64,000 nt of DNA, taken from the NCBI GenBank assembly GCA_028278035.1, contig JANQFC010000065.1, forward strand, positions 1,558 through 65,557, read 5' to 3'. This DNA is from Chlamydiales bacterium (lineage in GTDB: Bacteria > Chlamydiota > Chlamydiia > Chlamydiales > SM23-39). Made by a program: the position numbers and the translations under genes. Every line of letters begins with the position of its first letter. The first letter of the stretch is position 1. Below the pieces are notes generated by a model. It ran no database searches, was not told where the DNA came from, and saw only the letters and a list, made by a program, of their open reading frames with translations. Shown here piece by piece: positions 1 through 12,005 of this stretch.

Positions 1-232
1 TCACGCAATGAGCTCTGACAGCAGAGATTTTGGTTTTGTTCCGGAAGGTAATTTAAGAGGGGGAGTGAATTTCATATTCTGGCCTCCATCTGATCAATGG
101 GGCAAGCCTTTCCAACCAAAATATAAAATATTATCTTTTCCTAAAATAACAGTATGGTCCAGTGCATTTGTACTAACTGTATTAGCGGCAATATATACAA
201 TAAGAAGAAATAAGAAAAAACTTAAGTTCTAA
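1..232 (+). CDS. lepB: signal peptidase I, C-terminal part (gene continues upstream of the window)
   Basis: SSDSRDFGFVPEGNLRGGVNFIFWPP matches the conserved C-terminal S-x-DSR-x-x-G-x-V...FWP box of type I signal peptidases. The frame is open to the window edge and a hydrophobic tail follows. Confidence 0.65.
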   Translation, partial: HAMSSDSRDFGFVPEGNLRGGVNFIFWPPSDQWGKPFQPKYKILSFPKITVWSSAFVLTVLAAIYTIRRNKKKLKF

Positions 233-235
233 AAA

Positions 236-3200
236 TTAAGTTATTTTTGTTAAAGATATAATAGTTTTCTCGGAATTGATATCAATATCAATTCCATCAG
301 TTATTTTCTCAAATATAACATCAACTGCTAAAATTTCATTATCTATATAATTTTTATGTTCTAAATAACTTGTTTTTATTAAATCAGTCGTATCAAAAAC
401 AATTTTAATTCTATCAGTCACTTCAAATCCACTTTCTTTCCGCATCAAATTAATTTTGTTTACAATTTCTCTTGCAATTCCTTCTTTAATCAAACTATCG
501 CTCAATTCTGTTTCTAATGCTACTGCAATTTCAGGATCTCTGCCTGCAGCAACTCCCTCTTTTACTCTTCTTTCTATTACAACATCATCAGAAGTCAGTT
601 TTATAGTTTCTTTATCAATTTCAATATTTACAGGCTTATTATTTAAAATAGCATCAATTTGCTCTTTATTAAATCCAGCAATCACTTTTTGAGCTAAAGG
701 AAGTTTTTTACCAATTTTCTTGCCCAATACCCTAAAATTAGGTTTCGCAGATATTGTAATAAATCTGGACTCATCTTTTAGTAAAACAACCTCCCTAACA
801 TTTAACTCTTCTGCTATCAATTTATTAGATTTTTCTAAATACGATAATATTTTGAGATCTGCTTCTATATAAGCTTTAGATAAAGGCTGCCTCACCTTTA
901 TTTTATATTCTTTTCTAAGAGCATGACCAATACTTACAGTTCTTTGTACATAATCCATCTCATTTTCTAATTCCTCATCTCTCATATTCTTATCATAAGA
1001 TGGAAAATCACATAAATGAACAGAGGCTTCCATGTCATCTGTCTTTAATTCCTGATATATAGACTCACTAATAAACGGAACAAAAGGAGATATTATTTTA
1101 GTTAGCGTTAGCAATACTTGATATAGTGTACTAAAAGCATCTTTCCTATCCTGCGTTTCCTCATCTGACCAAAACCGAGACCTCGATCTTCTAATATACC
1201 AATTTGTAAGCTGATTGATAAAATCTACAATAGGATCCACTGCTTTTGCCAAGTCATATATATCTAAAGCTTTTTCTACTTCTTTAATAAGTTTATCTAC
1301 CAAAGATAATATCCATCTATCGATCTCACACTTGGGTTTTTCAAGAGTGGACGGCTTCCAATTATAAATTTTTGCATAAGTAGATAAAAAGACATAAGAG
1401 TTCCAAAATGGAAGTAATATTTGTCTAAATACTAATGAGACTCCTTTTTCAGAAAAACAAAGGTCCTGTCCTTTTACAGCAGGACTATGGATCATATACA
1501 TCCTGATAGCATCTGCTCCAAATTTAGAAATAACAATTTCCGGTTCCGGATAATTTTTCAGTCTCTTGCTCATTTTAGTACCGTCTTCAGCAAGCAGTAT
1601 TCCATTTACAACAACATTTTTAAAAGCAGGCTCATCAAAAATAGCTGCTGAAATCACAGTCAAAGTATAAAACCATCCCCTTGTCTGATCCAAAGCTTCT
1701 GCAATAAAATCAGCAGGAAAAGATTTTTCGGTTTTTTCCTTATTTTCAAATGGATAATGATTCTGAGCATATGGCATAGAACCCGATTCAAACCAGCAGT
1801 CAAAAACCTCTGTTACCCTGGTATAAGTTTCTCCATCATGCTCAAATGACAGATCATCTACAAACTGTCTATGTAAATTGTTTACTTTTTTCCCTGTCTT
1901 CTTCTCTAAATCTTCTAATGATCCAATTACAACAATATTGTTATTCTTATCTTTCCAGATAGGAATCGGTGTTCCCCAGTATCTATTTCTGCTAATAGCC
2001 CAATCCCTAGCACTTTCCAACCATTTGCCAAATCTCCCTTCTTTTAAATGCTCAGGCACCCAGTGTATTTTTTTATTGGCTGCAATAATTTTATCCTTGA
2101 TTTTTTCAACGGCAATAAACCAGGTTTTGACGGCTTTGTAAATTAATGGAGTATCCGATCTCCAACAAAATGGATATCTATGCCTAATAGTAGCTTGATA
2201 AAAAAGTTTTTTTTCATCTTTTAATCTTCTGATAATTAATTTATCTGAATCTTTAACAAGTTTACCCGCATATTCAGGAACCTCATTAGTAAATCGTCCA
2301 AAATCGTCTACCGGACAAATAACTTCAATACCGGCTTCTTTACAAGCAAAAAAATCTACTTCCCCAAAAGCAGGGGCTGTATGAACTATCCCTGTTCCAT
2401 CTTCTGTTGTCACAAAATCATCTACTAACACTCTAAAAGCATCTTCATTTTTAAAATAATCGAATAAAGGCTCATATCTTAAATTTTTTAATTCATTACC
2501 TTTGAAGGTCTCTAAAATTTCATATCCTTCATCTTCTTTAAAATAATTAGCAAGTCTTGCTTTTGCTATAATATAAATATCATTGCTCTTATGAGTTTTA
2601 ACTTTTACGTAATCAATATCGGGCCCTACTGTCAAAGCTAAATTGGATATTAGAGTCCATGGTGTGGTTGTCCAAGCAAGAAAATAAGTATTATCCTCAT
2701 TTTTTAATTTAAATTTTACAACAACGGAAGGATCATCAACATCTTGATAATTCAAGTTAGCTTCAAAATTGGAAATCGGCGTTCCCAGTTGGTAAGAAAA
2801 CGGCATTACCTTAAAACCTTCATATACCAGCCCCAAATCATACATCTGTTTGAATACCCACCAAACAGATTCCATAAAAGTAATATCCATTGTTCTATAA
2901 GTATGGGAAAAATCTACCCATCTTCCCATACGAGTTACGGTTTTTTCCCATTCTTTCGTATATCTCAAAACAATGCCTTCACATTCTTCATTAAATTTGG
3001 CTATGCCGAATTTATGAACAAATTCTGCTCCACACAACTCTTTCCCTTTTTCAATTTCATTTTCAACAGGAAGGCCGTGACAGTCCCATCCAAATCTTCT
3101 AGGGACATGAAATCCTTTCATGGTCTTATATCTAGCTACCACATCTTTAATAGCACTAACTAATAAATGTCCATAATGAGGAAGGCCTGTAGCAAATGGA

Positions 3201-3340
3201 GGCCCGTCGTAAAAAGAAAATAAAGGACTGTCCTTTCTATTTTCTACAGACTTTTCAAAAGTATTGTTTTTCTCCCATAATTTTAAAATTTTTTCTTCTC
3301 TTTTAGAAAAATCTTTTTCCTTATCTACTTCAAACATCAC
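236..3340 (-). CDS. ileS: isoleucyl-tRNA synthetase, type 2 (eukaryote-like)
   Basis: 1034 aa. HIGH motif (PHYGHLL), KMSKS motif (KMSKRLKNYP), and an editing-domain region (TTTPWTL). Confidence 0.97.
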   Translation of the reverse strand: MMFEVDKEKDFSKREEKILKLWEKNNTFEKSVENRKDSPLFSFYDGPPFATGLPHYGHLLVSAIKDVVARYKTMKGFHVPRRFGWDCHGLPVENEIEKGKELCGAEFVHKFGIAKFNEECEGIVLRYTKEWEKTVTRMGRWVDFSHTYRTMDITFMESVWWVFKQMYDLGLVYEGFKVMPFSYQLGTPISNFEANLNYQDVDDPSVVVKFKLKNEDNTYFLAWTTTPWTLISNLALTVGPDIDYVKVKTHKSNDIYIIAKARLANYFKEDEGYEILETFKGNELKNLRYEPLFDYFKNEDAFRVLVDDFVTTEDGTGIVHTAPAFGEVDFFACKEAGIEVICPVDDFGRFTNEVPEYAGKLVKDSDKLIIRRLKDEKKLFYQATIRHRYPFCWRSDTPLIYKAVKTWFIAVEKIKDKIIAANKKIHWVPEHLKEGRFGKWLESARDWAISRNRYWGTPIPIWKDKNNNIVVIGSLEDLEKKTGKKVNNLHRQFVDDLSFEHDGETYTRVTEVFDCWFESGSMPYAQNHYPFENKEKTEKSFPADFIAEALDQTRGWFYTLTVISAAIFDEPAFKNVVVNGILLAEDGTKMSKRLKNYPEPEIVISKFGADAIRMYMIHSPAVKGQDLCFSEKGVSLVFRQILLPFWNSYVFLSTYAKIYNWKPSTLEKPKCEIDRWILSLVDKLIKEVEKALDIYDLAKAVDPIVDFINQLTNWYIRRSRSRFWSDEETQDRKDAFSTLYQVLLTLTKIISPFVPFISESIYQELKTDDMEASVHLCDFPSYDKNMRDEELENEMDYVQRTVSIGHALRKEYKIKVRQPLSKAYIEADLKILSYLEKSNKLIAEELNVREVVLLKDESRFITISAKPNFRVLGKKIGKKLPLAQKVIAGFNKEQIDAILNNKPVNIEIDKETIKLTSDDVVIERRVKEGVAAGRDPEIAVALETELSDSLIKEGIAREIVNKINLMRKESGFEVTDRIKIVFDTTDLIKTSYLEHKNYIDNEILAVDVIFEKITDGIDIDINSEKTIISLTKIT

Positions 3341-3414
3341 ATCCTCTTGAGTAAACTCTTCATATCTTATAGTATATCAAGACTTTATTTCTACTATTTT
3401 TCCAGCCTACTCCC

Positions 3415-3443
3415 TATACAAATAATAAAAAATATAGTATAAT
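3415..3443 (+). promoter_or_regulatory. candidate sigma70-type promoter of ssrA (TATACA-N17-TATAAT)
   Basis: TATAAT at 3438-3443 and TATACA at 3415-3420 with a 17-nt spacer, about 17 nt upstream of the mature tmRNA 5' end. Confidence 0.35.
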
Positions 3444-3459
3444 GTTATTAAAATTAAAC

Positions 3460-3829
3460 GGGGGTGCTCAGGTTTCGACTTATAGGATAAGTAATTATGG
3501 CATGCAGAGGTTTATCGGTTGGCCTCTTAAAAAGCCGATAACAATATAAAAGGCGAAGATAATACTTTAGCTTTGGCCGCTTAAGACCTAACAGTCTTGG
3601 TAGTCTGGTAATCTAAAACACGGACCGAGAGGTTTAGAATTACTATCATTTATCTTGGTATGACTTCTACAGAGTTTGCTATCACTTTTTAGTTGTCGAG
3701 AATTAAAGATTGCAAATCGATTCATAGCGGGGAGCCTTCCGGCAGAATCGATCACATTAGGAGGCTCTAAGCATGTAGTCATCATTATGTATTTTTATAA
3801 GGACGAGAGTTCGATTCTCTCCACCTCCA
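3460..3829 (+). ncRNA. ssrA: tmRNA (transfer-messenger RNA)
   Basis: The 5' GGGGGTG (3460-3466) pairs with the 3' CACCTCC (3822-3828), including the G3:U alanine identity pair. T-arm is GAGAG-TTCGATT-CTCTC (3805-3821), with discriminator A at 3829. The internal tag frame GGC GAA GAT AAT ACT TTA GCT TTG GCC GCT TAA (3552-3584) ends in ...LALAA-stop. Confidence 0.9.
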
Positions 3830-3839
3830 TTCGCTCTTA

Positions 3840-4184
3840 TTACTTCATTACATTAGATTCTTCTAATAGCTTTTTGACTCTAGGAATTCTTTGGGCAGGA
3901 TTCACTTTTACTCCTCGAATATTATAAGCAAAAACAAAGATATCTTCATTTTTTTCTAACCATCCAACAAACCATCCAATTTGCATGTTTGCATCATGTC
4001 CAAATCCTGTCTTTCCAAACAATTTATAGCCTGTAGATAATTCATCAACAAACAAAAGGGATTTTGTCATTTGAATAGCATTACTTGAAATGGAAATTTC
4101 TTGTCGAATCTGAGATGCATTCAATAATCTTTGAATAAAATTTTGACCAACTAAAAATTCTGAATATCTCCTTTTTTTATATAG
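3840..4184 (-). pseudogene. class D (OXA-like) beta-lactamase / penicillin-binding-domain C-terminal fragment
   Basis: Only the C-terminal ~95-115 aa are present, with the KTG box (FGKTGFG) and the WFVGW motif typical of class D enzymes. There is no N-terminal S-x-x-K part. The frame closes just beyond repeat R0. The ORF-track start is a TTG. Confidence 0.6.
4153..4177 (+). repeat. R0, degenerate copy of the ssrA-3'-like element
   Basis: AAAAATTCTGAATATCTCCTTTTTT compared with R2 AAAGTTCTGAATGCGTCTCCTTTTA. Confidence 0.45.
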
Positions 4185-4328
4185 CTAAAAATCTAATTAT
4201 TAATCATTTACAAAAAACTCAAGCTTTAATAGATCATTAAAATATCATATATCCCGGAATATAATTGACAGAAACTCTTTTTTCCAAGAAAATAGAGTCT
4301 AAGGAAACAATATATAGGAATTTGTTTT

Positions 4329-5513
4329 ATGCAATTAATCCATCGATCATTAAATAAAAAATTAGAATCCATTTTAAAAAGAGGAAAAAGTGTTTTATTG
4401 CTCGGTCCTCGTCAAACAGGAAAGACAACTTTAATCAATCAATATAAAGCAGACCTTGAAATCACTCTTTTGATTTCAAAGGTGCGTCGTCAATATGAAG
4501 CAGACCCAGATCAACTTATCCGAGAAGTCCAAGCTTTAAAGCTCGCTAATCATAGAACTCCTCTTATAATTATTGATGAAGTTCAGAAAGTACCCGCTCT
4601 GATGGATGGAATCCAATATCTAATTGATAAAAAATTAGGACAATTTATTCTAACCGGATCTTCAGCCAGAAAATTAAAACATAATAAAAACATCAATCTG
4701 CTCCCTGGACGAGTTATCCAACTTCGTCTCGATCCACTCTCATTAGAAGAACTAAAACCAATACCTGCTATTGAAAATTTTTTACTATATGGATCTCTTC
4801 CTGCTATTTTCCTTGAATCTGATGTATCTATTCGCGAAGAAGAACTCGATTCCTACGTAGACTTATACCTTGAAGATGAAATTAGAGCAGAGGCTCTTGT
4901 ACGAGATATTGGTGCTTTTGAAAACTTTCTTCGACTTGCTTCTATTGAATCGGGCAATATTGTTAACTTTGACAAAATCTCTCAGGATATAGGTGTTGCC
5001 AGAACAACAATCGCGGCATATTATCAAATTTTAGAAGATTGCCTGATCGCAGAACGTATAGAACCCTATACAACAAGTAAAACACGTAAAAAATTAATAA
5101 AATCTCCAAAATATTTATTTTTTGATTTAGGCTTACGCCGTCTTGCAGCTAAGGAACAAACAAGCTTACCTCAAAAATATTTGGGAAATCTTTTTGAACA
5201 ATTTGTAGGGTTAGAATTGATTCGATGGTCACGTTTACAAAATTCAAAAATTAGCGTACATTTTTGGAGAGATCCTTCAGGTCCAGAAGTTGATTGGGTA
5301 ATACGCCGTAATAATGAATTACTTCCTATTGAGATAAAATGGACAGATACACCTTCTTTTAGAGACACAAAGCATCTTGAATTATTTTTAAATGAGTATC
5401 CAAATGCAAAGAAAGGTTATGTTGTGTGTCAAATATCTCACAATCAAGTTTTTTCAAATAAAATAGAAGCTATATCCTGGAAAGATTTAATTAAAAAGCT
5501 ACAAGATTGGTAG
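4329..5513 (+). CDS. AAA+ ATPase of the COG1373 type (AAA_14 + DUF4143-like)
   Basis: P-loop GPRQTGKTT and Walker B IIIDEVQ. The length and C-terminal pattern (WRDPSGPEVDWV...PIEIKW, a PD-(D/E)xK-like tail) are typical of this family. Confidence 0.75.
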   Translation: MQLIHRSLNKKLESILKRGKSVLLLGPRQTGKTTLINQYKADLEITLLISKVRRQYEADPDQLIREVQALKLANHRTPLIIIDEVQKVPALMDGIQYLIDKKLGQFILTGSSARKLKHNKNINLLPGRVIQLRLDPLSLEELKPIPAIENFLLYGSLPAIFLESDVSIREEELDSYVDLYLEDEIRAEALVRDIGAFENFLRLASIESGNIVNFDKISQDIGVARTTIAAYYQILEDCLIAERIEPYTTSKTRKKLIKSPKYLFFDLGLRRLAAKEQTSLPQKYLGNLFEQFVGLELIRWSRLQNSKISVHFWRDPSGPEVDWVIRRNNELLPIEIKWTDTPSFRDTKHLELFLNEYPNAKKGYVVCQISHNQVFSNKIEAISWKDLIKKLQDW

Positions 5514-5556
5514 AAAGATTTTCTGCGATTTTTTGCATTGAAACTCCAAATTTTAT

Positions 5557-5592
5557 CCAATCAAAAGTTCTGAATGCATCCAACCTCCTCCA
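5557..5592 (+). repeat. R1, ssrA-3'-like element
   Basis: CCAATCAAAAGTTCTGAATGCATCCAACCTCCTCCA. Confidence 0.75.
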
Positions 5593-5797
5593 AACTTATA
5601 ACTTCACACGAAATATTAATGAACCTATCCATAGAATAAGCAAATAGATAATATAGGGCCCAACCCTTTGCTGGGGGGAAAAAGCGTGAAAGCCATCTAA
5701 AATGTTTCGTATACCACTTGTTTCCAAACCATACGACTAGATTACATCCAATACTATCTATCAAAAGAAGGTAAAAAATAATTTTTTCTATAAGCAT
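5561..5797 (-). CDS. small hydrophobic protein (78 aa from the ATG at 5797)
   Basis: AAAGGAG lies 7 nt upstream of the ATG at 5797. One or two hydrophobic segments. The last 11 codons and the stop are encoded by the reverse complement of R1. Confidence 0.4.
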   Translation of the reverse strand: MLIEKIIFYLLLIDSIGCNLVVWFGNKWYTKHFRWLSRFFPPAKGWALYYLFAYSMDRFINISCEVISLEEVGCIQNF

Positions 5798-5928
5798 ATA
5801 TAGCTCCTTTTTACTATAAAAACTTTTTTTTATCATTCTTGCATTTTAAATAAAATTTCTTTTTTTGCTATTTTTTAATAACTCTGATATTTGACAAAGC
5901 AAAATCTATTATCAAATATTTTCCGTTT

Positions 5929-5958
5929 AAAGTTCTGAATGCGTCTCCTTTTACCTCA
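5929..5958 (+). repeat. R2, ssrA-3'-like element (right half diverged)
   Basis: AAAGTTCTGAATGCGTCTCCTTTTACCTCA. Confidence 0.65.
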
Positions 5959-6032
5959 TTAAATCTTATATTACCTTTTATATGTCAATGACTTATATAT
6001 ATCAAAATTATTAATTTGTAATTTATTATATA

Positions 6033-6060
6033 AACCTATAATGTAGGTTATATAACCTAC
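6033..6060. promoter_or_regulatory. operator-like palindromes upstream of the wHTH gene
   Basis: Perfect 18-bp palindrome GTAGGTTATATAACCTAC (6043-6060), plus an extra AACCTA half-site (6033-6038). It ends 12 nt before the ATG at 6073. Confidence 0.5.
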
Positions 6061-6072
6061 AAAAGAGGTTTT

Positions 6073-6402
6073 ATGCTAGAAGCAATTTTTGGTGGAAAAA
6101 ATATTGAAAAAATCCTCTTTTACCTGTTAATAAATAAAACATGTTATGCTACCCAACTTTCTATTGAATTTGATGAAGCATTATCTCCATTTCAAAAAGC
6201 ATTCGACAGACTAGAAGCAGGCGGAATAATTGTAAGTTTTTTAGAAGGTAAAACTCGTATTTATCAATTTAATCCCAGATATCCTTTTCTTAAAGAATTA
6301 AAAAAATTATTATTAAAAGCATTCAATTTCTTGCCTAATGAATTTAAAAATAATTATCTTAAAGTAAGAAAAAGACCAAGAAGAAGAGGAAAACCATTAT
6401 GA
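6073..6402 (+). CDS. small winged-helix DNA-binding protein (antitoxin/regulator-like)
   Basis: 109 aa with a wHTH-like core (ILFYLL...YATQLSIEF...FQKAFDRLEAGGIIVS..GKTRIYQFN) and a basic tail. It overlaps the next ORF by 4 nt (ATGA). Confidence 0.5.
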   Translation: MLEAIFGGKNIEKILFYLLINKTCYATQLSIEFDEALSPFQKAFDRLEAGGIIVSFLEGKTRIYQFNPRYPFLKELKKLLLKAFNFLPNEFKNNYLKVRKRPRRRGKPL

Positions 6403-6947
6403 GTAAATATAATTTCAAAAATATTACTCTTGAAAACCTTGCAGCCATAATTTCAAAGCACTTGTTTAAACATAATATTGAAAATATTTTAGTTGGAGGA
6501 GCTTGTGTTTCAATTTATTCACAAAATCGATATCAATCTTATGATTTAGACTATGTAACATATGAAGATATGAAAAAAATAGCACTTGCATTAAATGAAC
6601 TTGGCTTTCAAAAAAAAGGCCGCCATTTCGTACATAAAGATTGTCAATATATTATAGACTTTATAGCACCTCCAGTTGCTATCGGCAATGAACCAATTGA
6701 AAAATATGAATATCATAAGACATCACTTGGAACTATAAAAATGTTAACTCCCACTGATAGCGTTAAAGATAGATTAGCGAGTTTTTATCACTGGAATGAT
6801 CAACAAGGATTGGATCAAGCAATAAGTATCTATCAAGAAATTCCCGATAAAATTGATATAAAAGAAATTAAAAGATGGTCTAAAAAAGAAGGTCAATCGA
6901 AAAAATATGAAATATTTTTAAAATACTTAAAAGAGAATCTCAATTAA
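6399..6947 (+). CDS. minimal nucleotidyltransferase-fold protein (AbiEii/MNT-like)
   Basis: hGG-x13-DLD signature (VGGACVSIYSQNRYQSYDLDYV). Translationally coupled to the upstream wHTH gene. The stop TAA forms the first bases of R3. Confidence 0.45.
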   Translation: MSKYNFKNITLENLAAIISKHLFKHNIENILVGGACVSIYSQNRYQSYDLDYVTYEDMKKIALALNELGFQKKGRHFVHKDCQYIIDFIAPPVAIGNEPIEKYEYHKTSLGTIKMLTPTDSVKDRLASFYHWNDQQGLDQAISIYQEIPDKIDIKEIKRWSKKEGQSKKYEIFLKYLKENLN

Positions 6948-6977
6948 AAGTTCTGAATGCGTCCAACCACCTCCATT
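6946..6977 (+). repeat. R3, ssrA-3'-like element
   Basis: AAAAGTTCTGAATGCGTCCAACCACCTCCATT. The CCACCTCCATT part is identical to ssrA 3821-3831. Confidence 0.85.
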
Positions 6978-7137
6978 AGGACTGGATTGTTAAAACTTAT
7001 TTTTTTATAAAAGGTTTGTACATATACGAAAATCTACTAAAAAATTTATCTCAAAAAATTGAAAATTACTTCTCCGAGATTGAAGCAGGATACAACTTTG
7101 ATTTAGGGTCAGAATTTGAAATGGCACTGTGCAAAAT
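6946..7137 (+). repeat. 192-bp direct repeat, copy A (R3 + promoter region + first ~39 codons of a DUF6602-like gene, start codon lost)
   Basis: Aligns base-for-base with 7546-7737 (offset exactly 600 bp), with about 7 mismatches. Confidence 0.9.
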
Positions 7138-7480
7138 AACTTTGAGCAAAAGCAATGGCTTCCTTGCGCGGATCTCCATTTTGAGCAATTAGATAACATG
7201 CATATCGGGTTAACATAAAATCTTCAATTTCCCGTTGAGCTCCACTACCTAAGGCTACCATTTTCGTAACGCCACGAAAATGGTCATTCGGATCACATCC
7301 AGTTGTTTTACAAGATTCTATTGCTTTTTGAATAGATGTTATAAAATTTTCCCATCGAACATATCCAAGCGGTTCTTGCAAATCTCTAGCAAACCAAAAT
7401 TCAATTTTTTCCTCGAAAACTGTCTGTGCCAATTTATCAAAATGGCTTTGCAATTTACCAATAACCTCTTTATTATACAT
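7109..7480 (-). pseudogene. dinD: DNA-damage-inducible protein D (DinD)-like gene, N-terminal ~117 codons only
   Basis: LTRYACYLIAQNGDPRKEAIAFAQSYFA closely parallels E. coli DinD [28 protein letters not shown]. Homology stops at the 7137/7138 junction with repeat copy A, after which the frame runs 6 unrelated codons to a stop. Full-length DinD is more than twice this size. Confidence 0.7.
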
Positions 7481-7545
7481 AACACATTCCTAGTGCAAAT
7501 ATTTTTTTTTAAAATAATAGCTAAAATTGATAAAGAGCTCCAGTC

Positions 7546-7577
7546 AAAAGTTCTGAATGCGTCCAACCACCTCCATT
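7546..7577 (+). repeat. R4, ssrA-3'-like element
   Basis: Identical to R3. It is flanked by the short inverted repeat CCAGTC (7540-7545) / GACTGG (7580-7585). Confidence 0.85.
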
Positions 7578-7737
7578 AGGACTGGATTGTTAAAACTTAT
7601 TTTTTTATAAAAGGCTTGTGCATGTACAAAAATCTACTAAAAAATTTATCTCAAAAAATTGAAAATTACTTCTCCGAGATTGAAGCAAGATATAACTTTG
7701 ATTTAGGATCAGAATTTGAAATGGCACTGTGCAAAAT
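7546..7737 (+). repeat. 192-bp direct repeat, copy B (R4 + 5' end of the intact DUF6602-like gene)
   Basis: See copy A. Confidence 0.9.
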
Positions 7738-8413
7738 TCTTCAAGATCTCTTACCGACAAAATTCGGAATTTGTAGAGGATTTATAGTAGATAAAGAAGG
7801 CAATGAAGCAGGAGATGATATAATCATATATGGTCGTTTAAGGTTCCCTTCTATACGGATGTTAGGACAAGATAATTTCGCTCAAAAAGAAAGAATACCC
7901 TTCGAAGCAGTATATTGTTATATCGAAGCAAAGCACAACCTTGAGCTAGATAAAGTTAAAGAAAGTACATTAAATAAAGCACTAAACCAAATCCAAAAAA
8001 TTAAATCTCTGAAGCGCTCAGAGCGTAGTTTATCCCAAATAACAGAAGCATGCAATCTTGGAAAAAATTTTGAATTAAAAGCTCCGAATGAGTCGTGGGC
8101 TAATAAATGGAATCCTTTATATACGGGTATTATATCGAGAAGAACATCTCTGAAGTCTGATGGGGAAAATTCTAAAAAAGGATTATTAGATCCAAATGCA
8201 ACTTACCAACTCTTGCATCGCAATATGTCTATAGAATGTATACCTGATCTATTAGTAGCTGGAAATGGAGTTCTCGGCTTACCTACATTTAATGACCAAA
8301 AACACCTAATGCCCTTTAATGAACCAAATCACTGCTCAGGATTTTGCATATTTAAGACGAAGTATAATGCACTAGCAGTAGGCCTTTGTCAGTTGCTTTG
8401 GGCCCCTAGATAG
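7622..8413 (+). CDS. PD-(D/E)xK nuclease-fold protein, DUF6602-like
   Basis: GDDIIIYG ... EAVYCYIEAKH gives a D...E-x-K arrangement. The N-terminal LGSEFEMALCKILQDLLP pattern is typical of DUF6602 (recalled from memory, not searched). The ATG at 7622 is preferred over the TTG at 7616. Confidence 0.55.
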   Translation: MYKNLLKNLSQKIENYFSEIEARYNFDLGSEFEMALCKILQDLLPTKFGICRGFIVDKEGNEAGDDIIIYGRLRFPSIRMLGQDNFAQKERIPFEAVYCYIEAKHNLELDKVKESTLNKALNQIQKIKSLKRSERSLSQITEACNLGKNFELKAPNESWANKWNPLYTGIISRRTSLKSDGENSKKGLLDPNATYQLLHRNMSIECIPDLLVAGNGVLGLPTFNDQKHLMPFNEPNHCSGFCIFKTKYNALAVGLCQLLWAPR

Positions 8414-8514
8414 AATTCAATTAGGGACTATGCCTTGGGAAGAGATTATTGTTCCAAATTTGGATCAAGCACCTTTAACATCTTCATAATCTTTTTAAGA
8501 GAATCAATATCAAC

Positions 8515-8540
8515 ATTTCTAAATGCGTCTCTCACCTTCT
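8515..8540 (+). repeat. R5, degenerate ssrA-3'-like element
   Basis: ATTTCTAAATGCGTCTCTCACCTTCT compared with R7 AGTTCTGAATGCGTCTCTCCACCTCT. Confidence 0.55.
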
Positions 8541-8629
8541 TTGATCTTCAAGAAACCAAAATAATTTACAAAAATTGACTTACTGATTATTATAAAATTA
8601 TAATCCCGTATGGTGACCCCATACGAAAG

Positions 8630-8660
8630 CCACGAGCTCCGGCTCGTGGTTACTTTTTTT
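8630..8660 (+). terminator. GC-rich hairpin + T-run (rho-independent terminator-like), preceded by a second hairpin at 8607-8625
   Basis: CCACGAGC-TCCG-GCTCGTGG followed by TTACTTTTTTT. The upstream hairpin is CGTATGG-TGACC-CCATACG. Confidence 0.5.
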
Positions 8661-8671
8661 ATGAGAATTAA

Positions 8672-9316
8672 ATGCAACGTAATCGAGTTATAAGTTTTAT
8701 TGATGGCTTCAATTTATATCATGCGATTAATAATCTTAACCAATCTCATTTAAAATGGTTAAATTTACACTCTCTTTCAAAAGCTTTCACAAAACCTAAA
8801 TCTGAAATACTATCCAAAGTATTTTATTTTTCAGCATGGGTAAATCATAGAAATAAAACTTCTCAATATAGACAAAAATGTTATATCAATGCTTTAAAAA
8901 TCATGGGCATAAATACTGTCCTTGGTCATTTTAAAAGAAAAAATAGAAAATGTCCAAAATGTTTATTCAAGTGGATAGGAAACGAAGAAAAAGAAACAGA
9001 TGTAAATATTGCTTTACATTTATTAGATCTTGCTTATCAAAATGCTTTTGATCGTGCTATTATCATTTCTAATGATTCTGATCTTGCCCCTGCAATTCGA
9101 TTAATAAAAAAACGCTTTCCTAATAAAATTATAACAACTATAGCTCCTCCAAATTGTTATCATAGTAATGAATTAATTCAAGCGTCTTCAAATAAATCTA
9201 AAATCAGAATAAGACATTTAGAAAGATGCTTATTACCAGAAGTTGTAACTGATTCATCAAAAATAATTACTGTAACTAAACCTAAAGAATATGCTTTAGC
9301 TTTAAGTAAAAATTGA
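8672..9316 (+). CDS. NYN (LabA/DUF88-like PIN-fold) domain protein with a CPKC zinc-ribbon insert
   Basis: N-terminal FIDGFNLYH, an ETDVNIA motif, and IISNDSDLAPAI are the conserved acidic motifs of NYN ribonuclease-like domains. Confidence 0.65.
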   Translation: MQRNRVISFIDGFNLYHAINNLNQSHLKWLNLHSLSKAFTKPKSEILSKVFYFSAWVNHRNKTSQYRQKCYINALKIMGINTVLGHFKRKNRKCPKCLFKWIGNEEKETDVNIALHLLDLAYQNAFDRAIIISNDSDLAPAIRLIKKRFPNKIITTIAPPNCYHSNELIQASSNKSKIRIRHLERCLLPEVVTDSSKIITVTKPKEYALALSKN

Positions 9317-9338
9317 TCTTATTCCTTGATATAAAAGC

Positions 9339-9376
9339 CCAATCAAAAGTTCTGAACGCGTCCAACCACCTCCAAT
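9339..9376 (+). repeat. R6, ssrA-3'-like element
   Basis: CCAATCAAAAGTTCTGAACGCGTCCAACCACCTCCAAT. Confidence 0.85.
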
Positions 9377-9635
9377 CCGCTATGAAAATCGTTAATCCTC
9401 TTGCGGTTTTAATCTCAAGATTTGCAAATGGGACAAAAAAGAGACACTAATTAGCTAGAATTATTTTCAGAGCTGTTTCATGCATTATTTGATAAGCCTA
9501 TTTTTGGAGCATTTGATGATTCTGCTCCTAATCGTTGAGGTGCTTAAAGCAATAAAAGAATGGGAATCTTATATCTTTATAGATTCTAAAGATAATTTTA
9601 TATAAAATTTAAGACCTTTTAAAGGAAAAGCTATT

Positions 9636-11381
9636 ATGTCGGTTCCAGATCTTTCTTTTTATACTAATCCAAGCACATTAAAGCTCCTGCGTACACGAAA
9701 AATTTTGTTAGATGAAGAAACCCCTTGTCAGCTTTTTACTCGAGTTGTTCAGGCTCTTCTAAACGTTGAAGACTATTTTCAGACGCCGGGGTTTGAAAAA
9801 GAGGTTTTAAAAAAACATGTGTTTCAAACTATAGAACAGCGACACATCGTTTTTGGATCTCCTTTATTGACCAATGCTGGTCGGGAACATATGCCTATAA
9901 GTTCATGTACGGTAATACCGGTTGATTTACAAAAATCGTTGGAGGAAATTAAAAAAACGATGCTGCCTTATTATCAGGCAGAAATGGGCAGTGGGTTTAA
10001 TTTGAGCGAGATTGCCGATCCTGTAAAAACACTGCGTGAGCTGAATCATATCTTGTTAGAAATTGAAGGAACCGTGAAAAGGCCTCCGTGCGGAATGGCG
10101 CTGCTTATGGTTGATCATCCACAGGTGTTGAATTTTATTAATATGAAACGAGAAGATGATTTTGCTTCTTGGAGATTCAATCTTTCTGTCGGTGTAACGA
10201 ATGTTTTTATGGAAGCAGTTCAACATGATGAAGAATGGACCTTTAATGATCAGACTAAAGTCCCAGCTAAAATTATATTCGAAGCAATTGCAGCTGGAGC
10301 CCATCATTGCGGTGAGCCAGGATTGATTTTTTTTGATCACTTTCAAGAAGATAATCCTCTTCCTTCATTGGTATATAAAAGTGTGGCTCCTTGTGCTGAA
10401 ATAGCTATGGCGCCTGGAGAAGTATGCCAGTTTAGTTATATTAATGTTGCTGCAATGGTTCAAGATTTACCAGATAGTTCTGCATCTTTTGATTTTAAGA
10501 CTCTTCAACATACTGCCGCTCTTCTGACGCGGTTACTAGATGATGGTGTGGAAATTTCCATTGCTAATGCCGTGTCTGATGCGGCTATTATTGCAGACAA
10601 AAGAAGAATCTCAATCGGTATTTGCGGTTTTGCAGATCTATTGATTAAGCTGAAAATGCAGTATGGTTCTGACGAGTCTTTGATTCTTTTGAAAGAAATT
10701 CTGTCAGTTGTTCAATATTACTCAAAAAAGGCCTCCGTTGAATTAGCAGCATCAAGAGGCCCTTTTCCGGCTTTTGGCCAAAGCCGTTATTGTGATTATG
10801 GCTGGGTATCTCGTTTTCAAGCATATCCTACTGAGCAAGTGTCTTCTGAGATGTGGCAAACGCTTGCTTCTAGAATAACACAGATTGGCATTCGCAATGC
10901 CGGCACTACAGCTCTGCCTCCGACTGGCGTCAGTTCCCGGATAATCCATACCTCGCAAAGCATCGAACCTTTATTTTCTCTTTTGGAGGACTCTTTTTGT
11001 CTGCGCAGAGATTTGCAAACAGAATTAATCGACATTTTTCAATCAGCTAATGTAGATGCAGAAAGGCAAACAGCAATTTTTAAGGAGATTACTGACAAAG
11101 GAACAATTCCAGAAGAGATGTTGGAAATTCCCGATCAGATAAAAAAAACATTTCTTACAGCTTCTCAAATTGCGTGGGAAAGCCACTTGCGTATATTGGG
11201 AGAGGCAAAAAACTATCTGGATGAAAGTGTTTCCAAAACAGTGCTGTTGCCAAAGATAACTCCAGCGACGACTGTTAAAAAATGTTTTCTTCAAGCATAT
11301 CGAATTAAATTAAAAGGAATAACGATATTTAGAAATGGCTGTCTTCAAGAAAAAGATAAATCGATTTTTGCTGTAGATTAG
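9636..11381 (+). CDS. divergent, short class II (adenosylcobalamin-type) ribonucleotide reductase-like protein
   Basis: RNR landmarks are present: SPLLTNAG, ISSC, APCAEIAM..EVCQFSYINV (equivalent to NPCGE...CNLGSINL), LPPTGVSS, SKTVLLP, and KGITIFRNGC at the C-terminus. The protein is only 581 aa. The Asn of NPCGE is Ala and the GGG-x-G..S-x-LRP loop is altered. Confidence 0.65.
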   Translation: MSVPDLSFYTNPSTLKLLRTRKILLDEETPCQLFTRVVQALLNVEDYFQTPGFEKEVLKKHVFQTIEQRHIVFGSPLLTNAGREHMPISSCTVIPVDLQKSLEEIKKTMLPYYQAEMGSGFNLSEIADPVKTLRELNHILLEIEGTVKRPPCGMALLMVDHPQVLNFINMKREDDFASWRFNLSVGVTNVFMEAVQHDEEWTFNDQTKVPAKIIFEAIAAGAHHCGEPGLIFFDHFQEDNPLPSLVYKSVAPCAEIAMAPGEVCQFSYINVAAMVQDLPDSSASFDFKTLQHTAALLTRLLDDGVEISIANAVSDAAIIADKRRISIGICGFADLLIKLKMQYGSDESLILLKEILSVVQYYSKKASVELAASRGPFPAFGQSRYCDYGWVSRFQAYPTEQVSSEMWQTLASRITQIGIRNAGTTALPPTGVSSRIIHTSQSIEPLFSLLEDSFCLRRDLQTELIDIFQSANVDAERQTAIFKEITDKGTIPEEMLEIPDQIKKTFLTASQIAWESHLRILGEAKNYLDESVSKTVLLPKITPATTVKKCFLQAYRIKLKGITIFRNGCLQEKDKSIFAVD

Positions 11382-11382
11382 T

Positions 11383-11420
11383 CCAATCACAAGTTCTGAA
11401 TGCGTCTCTCCACCTCTATT
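11383..11420 (+). repeat. R7, ssrA-3'-like element
   Basis: CCAATCACAAGTTCTGAATGCGTCTCTCCACCTCTATT. The TCTCTCCACCTC part is identical to ssrA 3816-3827. Confidence 0.85.
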
Positions 11421-11519
11421 TCATCTGAAGCTTTCTCAGTTTTTTATTGATAAAATATCAAAATGCAACTTATAATTTTAACTTTTATAGTAATTTATTT
11501 TTGGGAATTTATATTCATC

Positions 11520-11984
11520 ATGCTTGCTGATTTAAATACAAATAAAAATACAGTTTTACAACATCCGCGTATTGGAGTAGCATGCGTCATTCAAAAAAAT
11601 GAAAAAATTCTTCTCGGAAAAAGAAAGGAAGCTCATGGCATAGGTTACTGGGGTATGCCCGGAGGACATCTAGAATTTAGAGAAAAAGTAGAAAATTGCG
11701 CAAAACGTGAGTTATTAGAAGAAACTGGTCTAAAAACACTTTCCTTACACGTAGGACCTTGGGTAGAAAACATAATCGAGCCTAAAAAAACACATTATAT
11801 CACTATCTTTGTATTCATAGACAGCTTTGTTGGAAAACCTGCTTTGCTTGAACCTAATAAATGTGAAGGCTGGAAGTGGTTTAATTGGAAAAATTTACCT
11901 CAGCCTCTTTATCCATCCATTCCCTCAGCAATAAACAAACATCCTGATCTATTCTATCAAGTAGCCTCTGTTGAAAAGTTCTGA
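11520..11984 (+). CDS. NUDIX hydrolase
   Basis: Nudix box GGHLEFREKVENCAKRELLEETGL. The ATG at 11520 (MLADLN...) is preferred over 11463. The last four codons and the TGA lie inside R8. Confidence 0.8.
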   Translation: MLADLNTNKNTVLQHPRIGVACVIQKNEKILLGKRKEAHGIGYWGMPGGHLEFREKVENCAKRELLEETGLKTLSLHVGPWVENIIEPKKTHYITIFVFIDSFVGKPALLEPNKCEGWKWFNWKNLPQPLYPSIPSAINKHPDLFYQVASVEKF

Positions 11985-12005
11985 ACGCGTCTCTTCACCT
12001 CCATT
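11974..12005 (+). repeat. R8, last ssrA-3'-like element
   Basis: AAAAGTTCTGAACGCGTCTCTTCACCTCCATT. Confidence 0.8.

Follow-up and report, generated by a model that had tools for sequence, protein, structure and literature searches.

A stretch of 64,000 nucleotides (nt) from a Chlamydiales bacterium (GenBank assembly GCA_028278035.1, contig JANQFC010000065.1), termed the window here, carries an open reading frame (ORF) at positions 9636..11381 (+) that encodes a 581-amino acid (aa) protein related to ribonucleotide reductase (RNR). RNRs rank with the best-studied enzymes. The protein belongs to a large and apparently undescribed clade of class II-derived RNR homologues, and the name RNRL is given here to this Asn-less, loop-1-less NrdJ-like clade. 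Gene neighbourhoods and residue conservation suggest that its members probably serve a dedicated nucleotide conversion rather than housekeeping DNA-precursor synthesis. A second gene, 81 nt downstream on the same strand (11463..11984 (+)), encodes a 173-aa NUDIX hydrolase of the MutT/NUDT15/AtNUDX1-like nucleoside triphosphate (NTP) diphosphatase type (PF00293, 1.2e-20).

The position and length of the ORF in the initial annotation are exact, and all the motifs quoted there are found in the order stated: SPLLTNAG at residues 75-82, ISSC at 88-91, GSGFNLSEIADP at 118-129, APCAE at 251-255, EVCQFSYINV at 262-271, LPPTGVSS at 427-434, SKTVLLP at 533-539 and KGITIFRNGC at 560-569. Pfam PF02867, the RNR barrel, extends over residues 89-564 (E = 1.7e-74). 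The AlphaFold2 (AF2) model is confident throughout, with a predicted local distance difference test (pLDDT) score of 94.2 and a predicted template modelling (pTM) score of 0.93. The Thermotoga maritima NrdJ is the nearest solved structure both by sequence and by predicted fold, and is the best Foldseek match to the model (3O0Q/1XJE, template modelling score 0.85). Pfam, AF2 and Foldseek thus agree on a ten-stranded alpha/beta barrel with a central finger loop.

Among NCBIfam models, NrdJ_Z, the equivalog for class II (TIGR02504; 2.2e-104), matches best, but the score of 350.2 bits is below the cut-off of 399.95, and the protein is therefore not an equivalog by this measure. The C-terminal motif KGITIFRNGC is of the class II type and stands in place of the Tyr-Tyr dyad (KTxYY) of class I; aligned class I sequences mostly read ..KT.YY.R at this point. 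The protein was said to be shorter than typical NrdJ enzymes, and this is so: canonical NrdJs in co-occurring genomes have 650-1135 aa.

Retained and missing parts of the reductase fold

Residue conservation was counted in an alignment of 194 RNRL family members. For comparison, the family was aligned (MAFFT L-INS-i) with T. maritima NrdJ, whose numbering was checked (C134 falls at the correct place), and with 17 canonical enzymes of classes I and II encoded in the same genomes. The finger loop, canonically N-P-C-G-E, reads A251-P-C253-A-E255 in the window protein (10386..10400 (+)). The thiyl-radical Cys and the Glu (T. maritima C322/E324) are kept and are present in 194/194 members. The reducing pair is also kept. 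Its first cysteine, Cys91 (9906..9908 (+); T. maritima C134), aligns with the SACF/SSCF of canonical enzymes and is found in 192/194 members; the second, C264 (T. maritima C333), is found in 194/194 and opens the family signature CQF.Y, canonically CNL[GA]S. This signature is C264-Q-F-S-Y in the window protein (10425..10439 (+)), and across the family F266 is present in 194/194, Q265 in 169/194 and Y268 in 187/194. The phosphate-binding PPTG loop is near-invariant, and the class II C-terminal motif KGITxFRxG is intact in the window protein.

The Asn of the finger loop (E. coli N437, T. maritima N320) is Ala251 here, and Asn is found in no member of the family: position 251 is A in 175, P in 9, V in 6 and S in 4. 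The Asn-to-Ala change proposed from the sequence is the same in pairwise, profile and multiple alignments. A misaligned Asn is ruled out, as pairwise phmmer, a profile hmmsearch against the Protein Data Bank (PDB) and MAFFT L-INS-i all agree. The missing residue is a conserved substrate (ribose) ligand in class I and II RNRs (PMC4493059). The ribose pocket is remodelled family-wide, with Asn changed to Ala/Pro, CNL to CQF and SxCF to SxC[TAVS].

The nucleotide loop, listed initially among the unusual features, has undergone a 14-residue deletion relative to T. maritima NrdJ residues ~171-184, both in the profile and in the multiple alignment. The remnant of strand betaB and loop 1 is G118-SGFNLSEIAD-P129 (9987..10022 (+)), as delimited by the alignment gap and the AF2 secondary structure. 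Since betaB occupies residues 118-122 and alphaB starts at 129 in the model, loop 1 is down to ~6 residues, compared with ~20 in T. maritima NrdJ. Loop 1 is the betaB-alphaB insertion that binds specificity effectors, and it is listed, with the dimer interface and a beta-hairpin, among the minimum features that class I and II enzymes share (Burnim et al., bioRxiv 10.1101/2022.04.23.489257). Judged from the alignments and the model, this allosteric specificity site is deleted in RNRL.

The long beta-hairpin that follows strand betaH (after EPxF) is truncated as well. Its turn and second strand are missing relative to the 17 canonical sequences, and DSSP assigns no strands of at least three residues at 446-457 of the AF2 model. 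From alignment and predicted structure, we have moderate confidence that RNRL lacks the canonical hairpin. Beyond the class II RDG motif the tail is short (median length, 14 residues), with no Cys past RDG[SC] in 177/194 members (91%), and thus RNRL has no C-terminal thiol shuttle. Canonical NrdJs of the same genomes have CxxC-rich, zinc-finger-like tails. A Cys-rich C-terminal domain mediates NrdJ turnover (Loderer et al., PMC5704485).

The initial annotation treated these oddities as peculiar to this gene, but they are invariant features of a large family. Private decay of the window gene is ruled out as their source, since the same substitutions are invariant in 194 homologues. The window copy itself looks intact, because it deviates at two of 61 family-conserved columns, where the family median is one. 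At codon 537 (11244-11246) it has Leu, where 192/194 family members have Asn (SKT[IV]N), as do aligned class II and most class I sequences; this is the sole unique departure of the window copy from family-invariant positions. It might be argued from this substitution, and from the location in an island of mobile or foreign genes, that what this genome carries is the decaying, now functionless relic of a transferred gene. This is extremely unlikely: the frame is open over its full length, the number of deviating columns is typical of the family, the AF2 model is confident from end to end, and the partner NUDIX gene is intact and adjacent.

The RNRL family and its partners

The family is defined by a triad of features, namely [APVS]PC[AGS]E, C[QHV]F[GSA]Y and a short G[ST]G[FY]x[LF]...[DN]P loop, together with a length of ~550-620 aa and the absence of a Cys tail. 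The window protein has all of them. The best 120 database homologues all have [AVS]PC[AG]E, nearly all as APC[AG]E, and share the short loop in the form MG[ST]G[FY]x[LF]S..DP; 79 relatives from named genomes all have APC[AGS]E or PPC[AGS]E and the same short loop. An exhaustive phmmer search was made of 1.84 billion representatives at 50% identity, and the best 150 matches were examined. About 110 of these carry the triad (non-Asn finger loop, CxF.Y, short loop), and ~35 other classifiable representatives have NPCGE, CNLGS and the canonical loop. No convincing intermediates were found among the 150.

RNRL comprises more than 100 clusters at 50% identity and was recorded in 198 GTDB species. 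Hosts are bacteria of the candidate phyla radiation (CPR), DPANN archaea, Chlamydiota, Dependentiae, Legionella and actinomycetes, and the last include cultured Nocardia, Amycolatopsis and Streptoalloteichus tenebrarius DSM 40477. Members are labelled 'ribonucleoside-diphosphate reductase alpha chain' or 'hypothetical protein' in databases. No description of the clade was found in the literature searched, which included the two large phylogenetic studies of RNRs and the study of the C-terminal domain of NrdJ.

In a maximum-likelihood tree built from 47 RNRL and 18 canonical sequences (the wrong-frame row L088 was left out), RNRL forms one branch inside the class II radiation and apart from class I, with a Shimodaira-Hasegawa-like approximate likelihood ratio (SH-aLRT) of 100. 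Metagenomic and Parachlamydiales sequences, 47-62% identical to the window protein, form a group with it. The initial annotation allowed that the catalytic residues might prove intact after correct gapping and that the protein might cluster with ordinary NrdJ. Neither is the case, because the Asn is truly absent after correct gapping and the protein falls in a separate clade.

Taxa are scrambled within RNRL, with Legionella beside Babeliaceae and Saccharibacteria, and gammaproteobacterial metagenome-assembled genomes (MAGs) beside Roizmanbacteria; this implies frequent horizontal transfer. Nocardia RNR-like proteins form the sister group of the Saccharibacteria copies (support 97), with further actinomycete copies close by in the tree. 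This placement is compatible with gene exchange between Saccharibacteria epibionts and their actinomycete hosts.

A separate observation concerns the genetic code of one carrier, the MAG 'Candidatus Peribacteria' (G020, the genome of locus L055). Its family gene is interrupted by 12 in-frame TGA codons and its NrdD gene by 13 (C2:27081-28391 and C1:889289-891031), which points to the reading of TGA as a sense codon in this genome.

Neighbouring genes were clustered in 75 loci and representatives were annotated with Pfam. A NUDIX gene is adjacent or nearby in 32/75 loci. Other neighbours are an AAA_18-kinase/CYTH fusion (20/75), a GreA/Rnk-like protein (18/75), a Tmk/dNK-like kinase (15/75), a PfkB kinase (12/75) and an HD protein (6/75). 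At least one of these types is found within four genes in 54/75 loci, a phosphohydrolase (NUDIX, HD or CYTH) is directly adjacent in 41/75, and a kinase and a hydrolase occur together in 30/75. Fusions with phosphohydrolases are found in at least seven proteins overall, with NUDIX in P0055, P0102 and P0117 and with HD in P0100, P0105, P0109 and P0118. RNRL is thus genetically coupled to NTP phosphohydrolases and to nucleoside and nucleotide kinases (PfkB, Tmk-like and AAA_18).

In the window the gene was said to sit alone, but in other genomes too an RNR-like gene and a NUDIX gene form a conserved pair. The closest chlamydial relatives (loci L118, L121 and L003) again have an adjacent NUDIX gene, and the window NUDIX shares 43% identity with its counterpart beside the orthologue in L121. 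Its closest PDB entries are AtNUDX1 (9e-28) and NUDT15 (6e-21), with MTH1 also near. The adjacency in relatives, the fusions and the similarity of the NUDIX proteins show one module and not two unrelated cassettes.

RNRL is accessory, as it coexists with a canonical class I, II or III RNR. The window's genome (1.79 Mb, rated 100% complete) has the class I NrdAB expected of Chlamydiae, encoded by an nrdA-nrdB operon on contig C7, and its only nrdB adjoins nrdA there and not the RNR-like gene. A canonical RNR (a higher-scoring class I/II barrel or NrdD) is co-encoded in 27/30 other carrier genomes, including every complete chromosome among them. The idea that RNRL serves as the sole RNR of small genomes is for the most part rejected on this count. 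In two CPR genomes (G011:C16:59800-68000, and G015; loci L023 and L034) canonical class II RNR cores are found in tandem, and the RNR-like gene sits elsewhere in the genome.

By homology the radical source would be adenosylcobalamin (AdoCbl), which is somewhat doubtful and unproven. Adenosyltransferases, where present, tend to accompany or adjoin canonical NrdJ. No cobalamin riboswitch or other regulatory RNA was found near the gene here or in 10 related loci. Among 123 further neighbours, no NrdB-like or ferritin-like protein, radical S-adenosylmethionine (SAM) activase, NrdH/thioredoxin or B12 gene recurs.

These data bear on the simplest explanation, that the protein is a conventional foreign AdoCbl-dependent class II RNR (NrdJ) that provides a second, oxygen-independent route to all four deoxyribonucleoside triphosphates (dNTPs). 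Many bacteria encode several RNR classes, and a second one would be no surprise. The best profile and the closest structure are both those of NrdJ, the Cys3-Glu core and the KGITxFRxG motif are intact, and three CPR MAGs have RNRL and an adenosyltransferase with no other RNR seen. It should also be pointed out that a class III enzyme does without the Asn/Glu contacts (PMC4493059). However, the score is short of the equivalog cut-off, the Asn is absent in all 194 members, the hairpin is truncated, there is no redox tail, and the clade is separate from the NPCGE enzymes. With loop 1 deleted, the four-substrate specificity switch, which is described as important in all RNRs (bioRxiv 10.1101/2022.04.23.489257), is missing. 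In addition, no adenosyltransferase of the PduO or CobA type was detected in this complete genome (the EutT type and AdoCbl uptake were not examined), nor in 11/20 other carriers (the EutT type again not examined). We therefore regard a conventional NrdJ as unlikely.

At the other extreme, RNRL might be a pseudoenzyme, that is, a nucleotide-binding sensor or regulator of the partner phosphohydrolase or kinase, or of the canonical RNR. Four features considered important for RNR catalysis or turnover are lost, many carrier genomes have no identifiable radical source, and fusion to NUDIX or HD could mean a regulatory domain. There is also a precedent in betaherpesviruses, whose inactive R1 homologues have been recruited to other roles (e.g. 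PMC5469499). In these proteins, M45/UL45, catalytic residues have been lost, and the role is one in the signalling of host cell death. Loss of such residues is normal for pseudoenzymes, however, and the thiyl Cys, the Glu and both redox Cys of RNRL are invariant or nearly so across more than 100 clusters at 50% identity, which argues for selection on catalysis. A pseudoenzyme is thus very unlikely.

The ssrA-linked island

The RNR-like/NUDIX pair is located in an 8-kb stretch downstream of the tmRNA gene, ssrA (3460..3829 (+); ARAGORN; Rfam RF00023, 140.7 bits), which anchors an island punctuated by 37-nt copies that resemble the ssrA 3' end. The repeats reported on either side of the RNR-like gene are real. 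They belong to repeat families D3/D4, aligned with the ssrA 3' end, and the copies at 9339..9375 (+) and 11383..11419 (+) bracket the gene; the second begins 2 nt past the stop codon, between the RNR-like and NUDIX genes. The island's last copy, likewise aligned with the ssrA 3' end, is at the end of the NUDIX gene (11968..12004 (+)).

The gene was judged by eye to be GC-richer than its surroundings, and computation bears this out: its G+C content is 39.2%, compared with 31.4 +/- 3.5% across the 884 ORFs in the genome that reach 250 aa (rank 7/884). G+C at third codon positions is a weaker signal (29.9% vs 23.5 +/- 4.6%, rank 68/884). An orthologue is found in one of 60 genomes of the same family or order. 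Because so few relatives carry the pair, and because it lies in an ssrA-linked island, the RNRL-NUDIX pair was probably acquired horizontally, as the initial annotation had proposed; the raised G+C and the scrambled taxa in the tree are in accord with this.

Four other loci have tRNA genes ~0.2 to 3 kb upstream of the RNR-like module (L118 5719-5790; L016 4505-4822; L003 2283-2588; L049 2977-3048). This proximity echoes the tmRNA linkage and suggests integration at tRNA-type sites.

A phage origin, also proposed initially, is not supported, because only one of 13 viral matches is a family member. It is the one true member in a family-specific scan of 2.9 million viral contigs (IMG/VR), and the other 12 matches, at 25-28% identity, are in the range of canonical RNRs. 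The viral member (L105; IMGVR_UViG_3300020195_001307; 1-11746) is on an exact 9,117-bp repeat unit, i.e. a circular or concatemeric small element. Besides a ParB-methyltransferase and another DNA methyltransferase, the element encodes TerL and a TerS-like protein, and no capsid genes were seen on it. As cargo it has a PfkB kinase, an RNR-like protein with APCAE, a NUDIX protein and two uncharacterized proteins. It may be a satellite-like mobile element.

The part of the island that precedes the RNR-like gene (3830-9316) contains candidate-defence-like genes, each parted from the next by an ssrA-3'-end-like repeat; no integrase was found in it. The genes encode an AAA_14/DUF4143 ATPase (4329-5513 (+); PADLOC PDC-S01, 2.8e-69), a Bro-N protein whose N-terminal part matches PADLOC PDC-S13 (7109-7480 (-)), a NucC-like DUF6602 PD-(D/E)xK nuclease that matches a candidate-defence model (7616-8413 (+)) and an NYN protein (8672-9316 (+); HEC-09, 8.9e-55). 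A 197-nt direct duplication with 95% identity (6941-7137 and 7541-7737, 600 nt apart) flanks the Bro-N gene and takes in one ssrA-like repeat.

The window NUDIX matches PADLOC PDC-S07 (1.8e-12), and the RNR-like protein has no PADLOC-DB 2.0 match at E <= 0.01. Elsewhere in the family, Tmk-like partners match PADLOC PDC-M51B (1.9e-32) and VakA (9e-15), model names that are not interpreted further here, and the kinase-CYTH partner matches the kinase part of a defence dCTP deaminase model. About 10 of the 123 other neighbours match any defence model, and a defence island as the family-wide context is thus unsupported. The suggestion of a defence or anti-defence context therefore holds locally, where island neighbours match candidate-defence models, but not for the RNR-like protein itself or for the family at large.

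This local setting raises the question of whether RNRL makes a non-canonical nucleotide that serves phage defence, interference or inter-microbial conflict. The product might be a dehydrated 3'-keto-2'-deoxy or didehydro nucleotide, a chain terminator, or a decomposing, NTP-depleting compound. RNRL would then be an RNR-fold counterpart of viperin-type synthesis, in which the kinases supply the substrate and the NUDIX, HD or CYTH enzyme matures the product or protects the producer. The remodelled ribose pocket with the radical Cys and Glu kept is consistent with this, as is the lack of a redox tail, which fits redox-neutral chemistry, and of an allosteric site, which fits a single substrate. 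The patchy distribution and high mobility of the module, its neighbours in the window (the PDC-S01, HEC-09 and PDC-S07 matches and the NucC-like nuclease) and the PADLOC matches of the Tmk-like and kinase-CYTH partners agree with it too. Against it stand the lack of a PADLOC match for RNRL, the scarcity of defence matches among neighbours in general, and the resemblance of many loci to ordinary chromosomal operons. The strict conservation of the reducing Cys is also easier to explain by a true two-electron reduction. To our knowledge such chemistry has no biochemical precedent as a physiological RNR function. Taken together, a non-canonical product seems doubtful.

A wider form of the same idea is a shade more doubtful still. 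Here RNRL would be a new class of the RNR superfamily, consisting of single-substrate radical enzymes free of allosteric control, of the thiol-shuttle tail and possibly of cobalamin dependence. With their kinases and phosphohydrolases, these would either synthesize a non-canonical nucleotide, for instance a dehydrated or chain-terminating analogue, or break down a nucleotide pool in phage-host or symbiont-host conflict, as a viperin counterpart spread horizontally among CPR, DPANN, intracellular bacteria and actinomycetes.

Probable function and relation to known systems

Of the alternatives in the initial annotation, an RNR-fold protein recruited to another nucleotide-directed function is the more likely, given the absent Asn and the separate clade. 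In the form that we prefer, to which we assign about even chances, an intact RNRL member carries out thiyl-radical and dithiol chemistry on one dedicated nucleotide, within a self-contained mobile module. The chemistry would take place at C2'/C3' of a ribonucleotide, with one dedicated substrate and no allosteric switching. Kinases would feed RNRL, and the phosphohydrolase would take the product to the monophosphate or nucleoside. The module as a whole would perform a 'ribonucleoside to (deoxy)nucleoside-phosphate' conversion and thereby add to or skew a nucleotide pool, without supplying all four dNTPs. Reduction is favoured because both reducing cysteines are strictly retained, and a single substrate fits the loss of loop 1. 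One can speculate on a pyrimidine-branch version, in which a U or C nucleoside would be converted to the NDP/NTP, then to the deoxy form and finally to dUMP or dCMP, with the Tmk-like kinase acting after thymidylate synthesis.

Several points weigh against such a dedicated conversion. Substitutions of Asn437 inactivate the E. coli enzyme, and the loss of this Asn may impair ordinary 2'-reduction. It weakens the case for a reductase without excluding activity, since main-chain and water interactions stand in for the Asn/Glu contacts in a class III enzyme (PMC4493059). The truncated beta-hairpin is implicated in class II cofactor binding, adenosyltransferases of the PduO and CobA types are missing from many carriers as described above, and no alternative radical generator is conserved among the 123 further neighbours. 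Turnover of a reductase is hard to account for, because there is neither a thiol-shuttle tail nor a conserved thioredoxin/NrdH neighbour. RNRL could be the general RNR in the three of 30 carriers that show no other RNR, if another is truly absent; these are small CPR MAGs whose completeness is not known, and they do have an adenosyltransferase. No result points to a substrate or product, and a dedicated conversion does not account for the retention of the module by actinomycetes with complete nucleotide metabolism.

Of major interest is that the finger-loop Asn, the loop 1 site and the thiol-delivery tail are regarded as all but universal among class I and II enzymes. RNRL drops all three and most of the hairpin, yet the radical and dithiol residues are strictly conserved. 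It could be the most minimal working RNR known and, if so, would show what ribonucleotide reduction cannot spare. The alternative would be an enzyme of the RNR fold whose chemistry is new. Either possibility can be put to a direct test in the cultured actinomycetes that carry RNRL. When the metabolism of CPR, DPANN or Chlamydiae is reconstructed, RNRL may be wrongly taken as a sign of dNTP synthesis that depends on B12.

Among named families, the 'ribonucleotide reductase-like protein' of NCBIfam NF005401 (PRK06948) gives a weak match (1.6e-51, 175.7 bits), far below its cut-off of 906 bits, and the window protein is not a member. An analogy may be drawn with the prokaryotic viperins (pVips), which are radical SAM enzymes that act on the ribose of NTPs, are encoded beside nucleotide kinases and are recognised defence genes. 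RNRL would likewise be a radical enzyme encoded beside nucleotide kinases, but the fold and radical source differ, and it has neither a PADLOC match nor a general defence-island context.

The T. maritima NrdJ (PDB 1XJE, 3O0O, 3O0Q) is the best match in sequence and structure, and shares with RNRL the ten-stranded barrel, the finger loop with PCxE, both reducing cysteines, the PPTG loop, SKT and a KGITxYRDG-type C-terminal motif, in keeping with the position of RNRL inside the class II radiation. It differs in that RNRL has Ala/Pro/Val/Ser for Asn320 and CQF[GS]Y for CNLGS, is without loop 1 (~171-184), does not conserve Lys158 and has RP for the RRG of loop 2. The RNRL hairpin is truncated, the Cys-rich C-terminal domain or tail is absent, and the score is below the TIGR02504 cut-off. 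In further contrast to dimeric NrdJ, RNRL is often found in genomes with no detectable PduO-/CobA-type adenosyltransferase.

The alpha subunit of class O (clade Ø) from Synechococcus phage S-CBP4 (PDB 7URG) is likewise small and cone-less, with few insertions around the barrel. This subunit represents the minimum shared set of dimer interface, loop 1 and beta-hairpin, and works with a ferritin-like beta subunit (bioRxiv 10.1101/2022.04.23.489257). RNRL, by comparison, is without loop 1 and the greater part of the hairpin, and no beta-like gene is conserved beside it. The betaherpesvirus R1 homologues resemble RNRL if the RNR fold has been kept for a function other than dNTP synthesis; in contrast to M45/UL45, however, the Cys3-Glu core of RNRL is strongly conserved, and its genes are embedded in operons of nucleotide enzymes.

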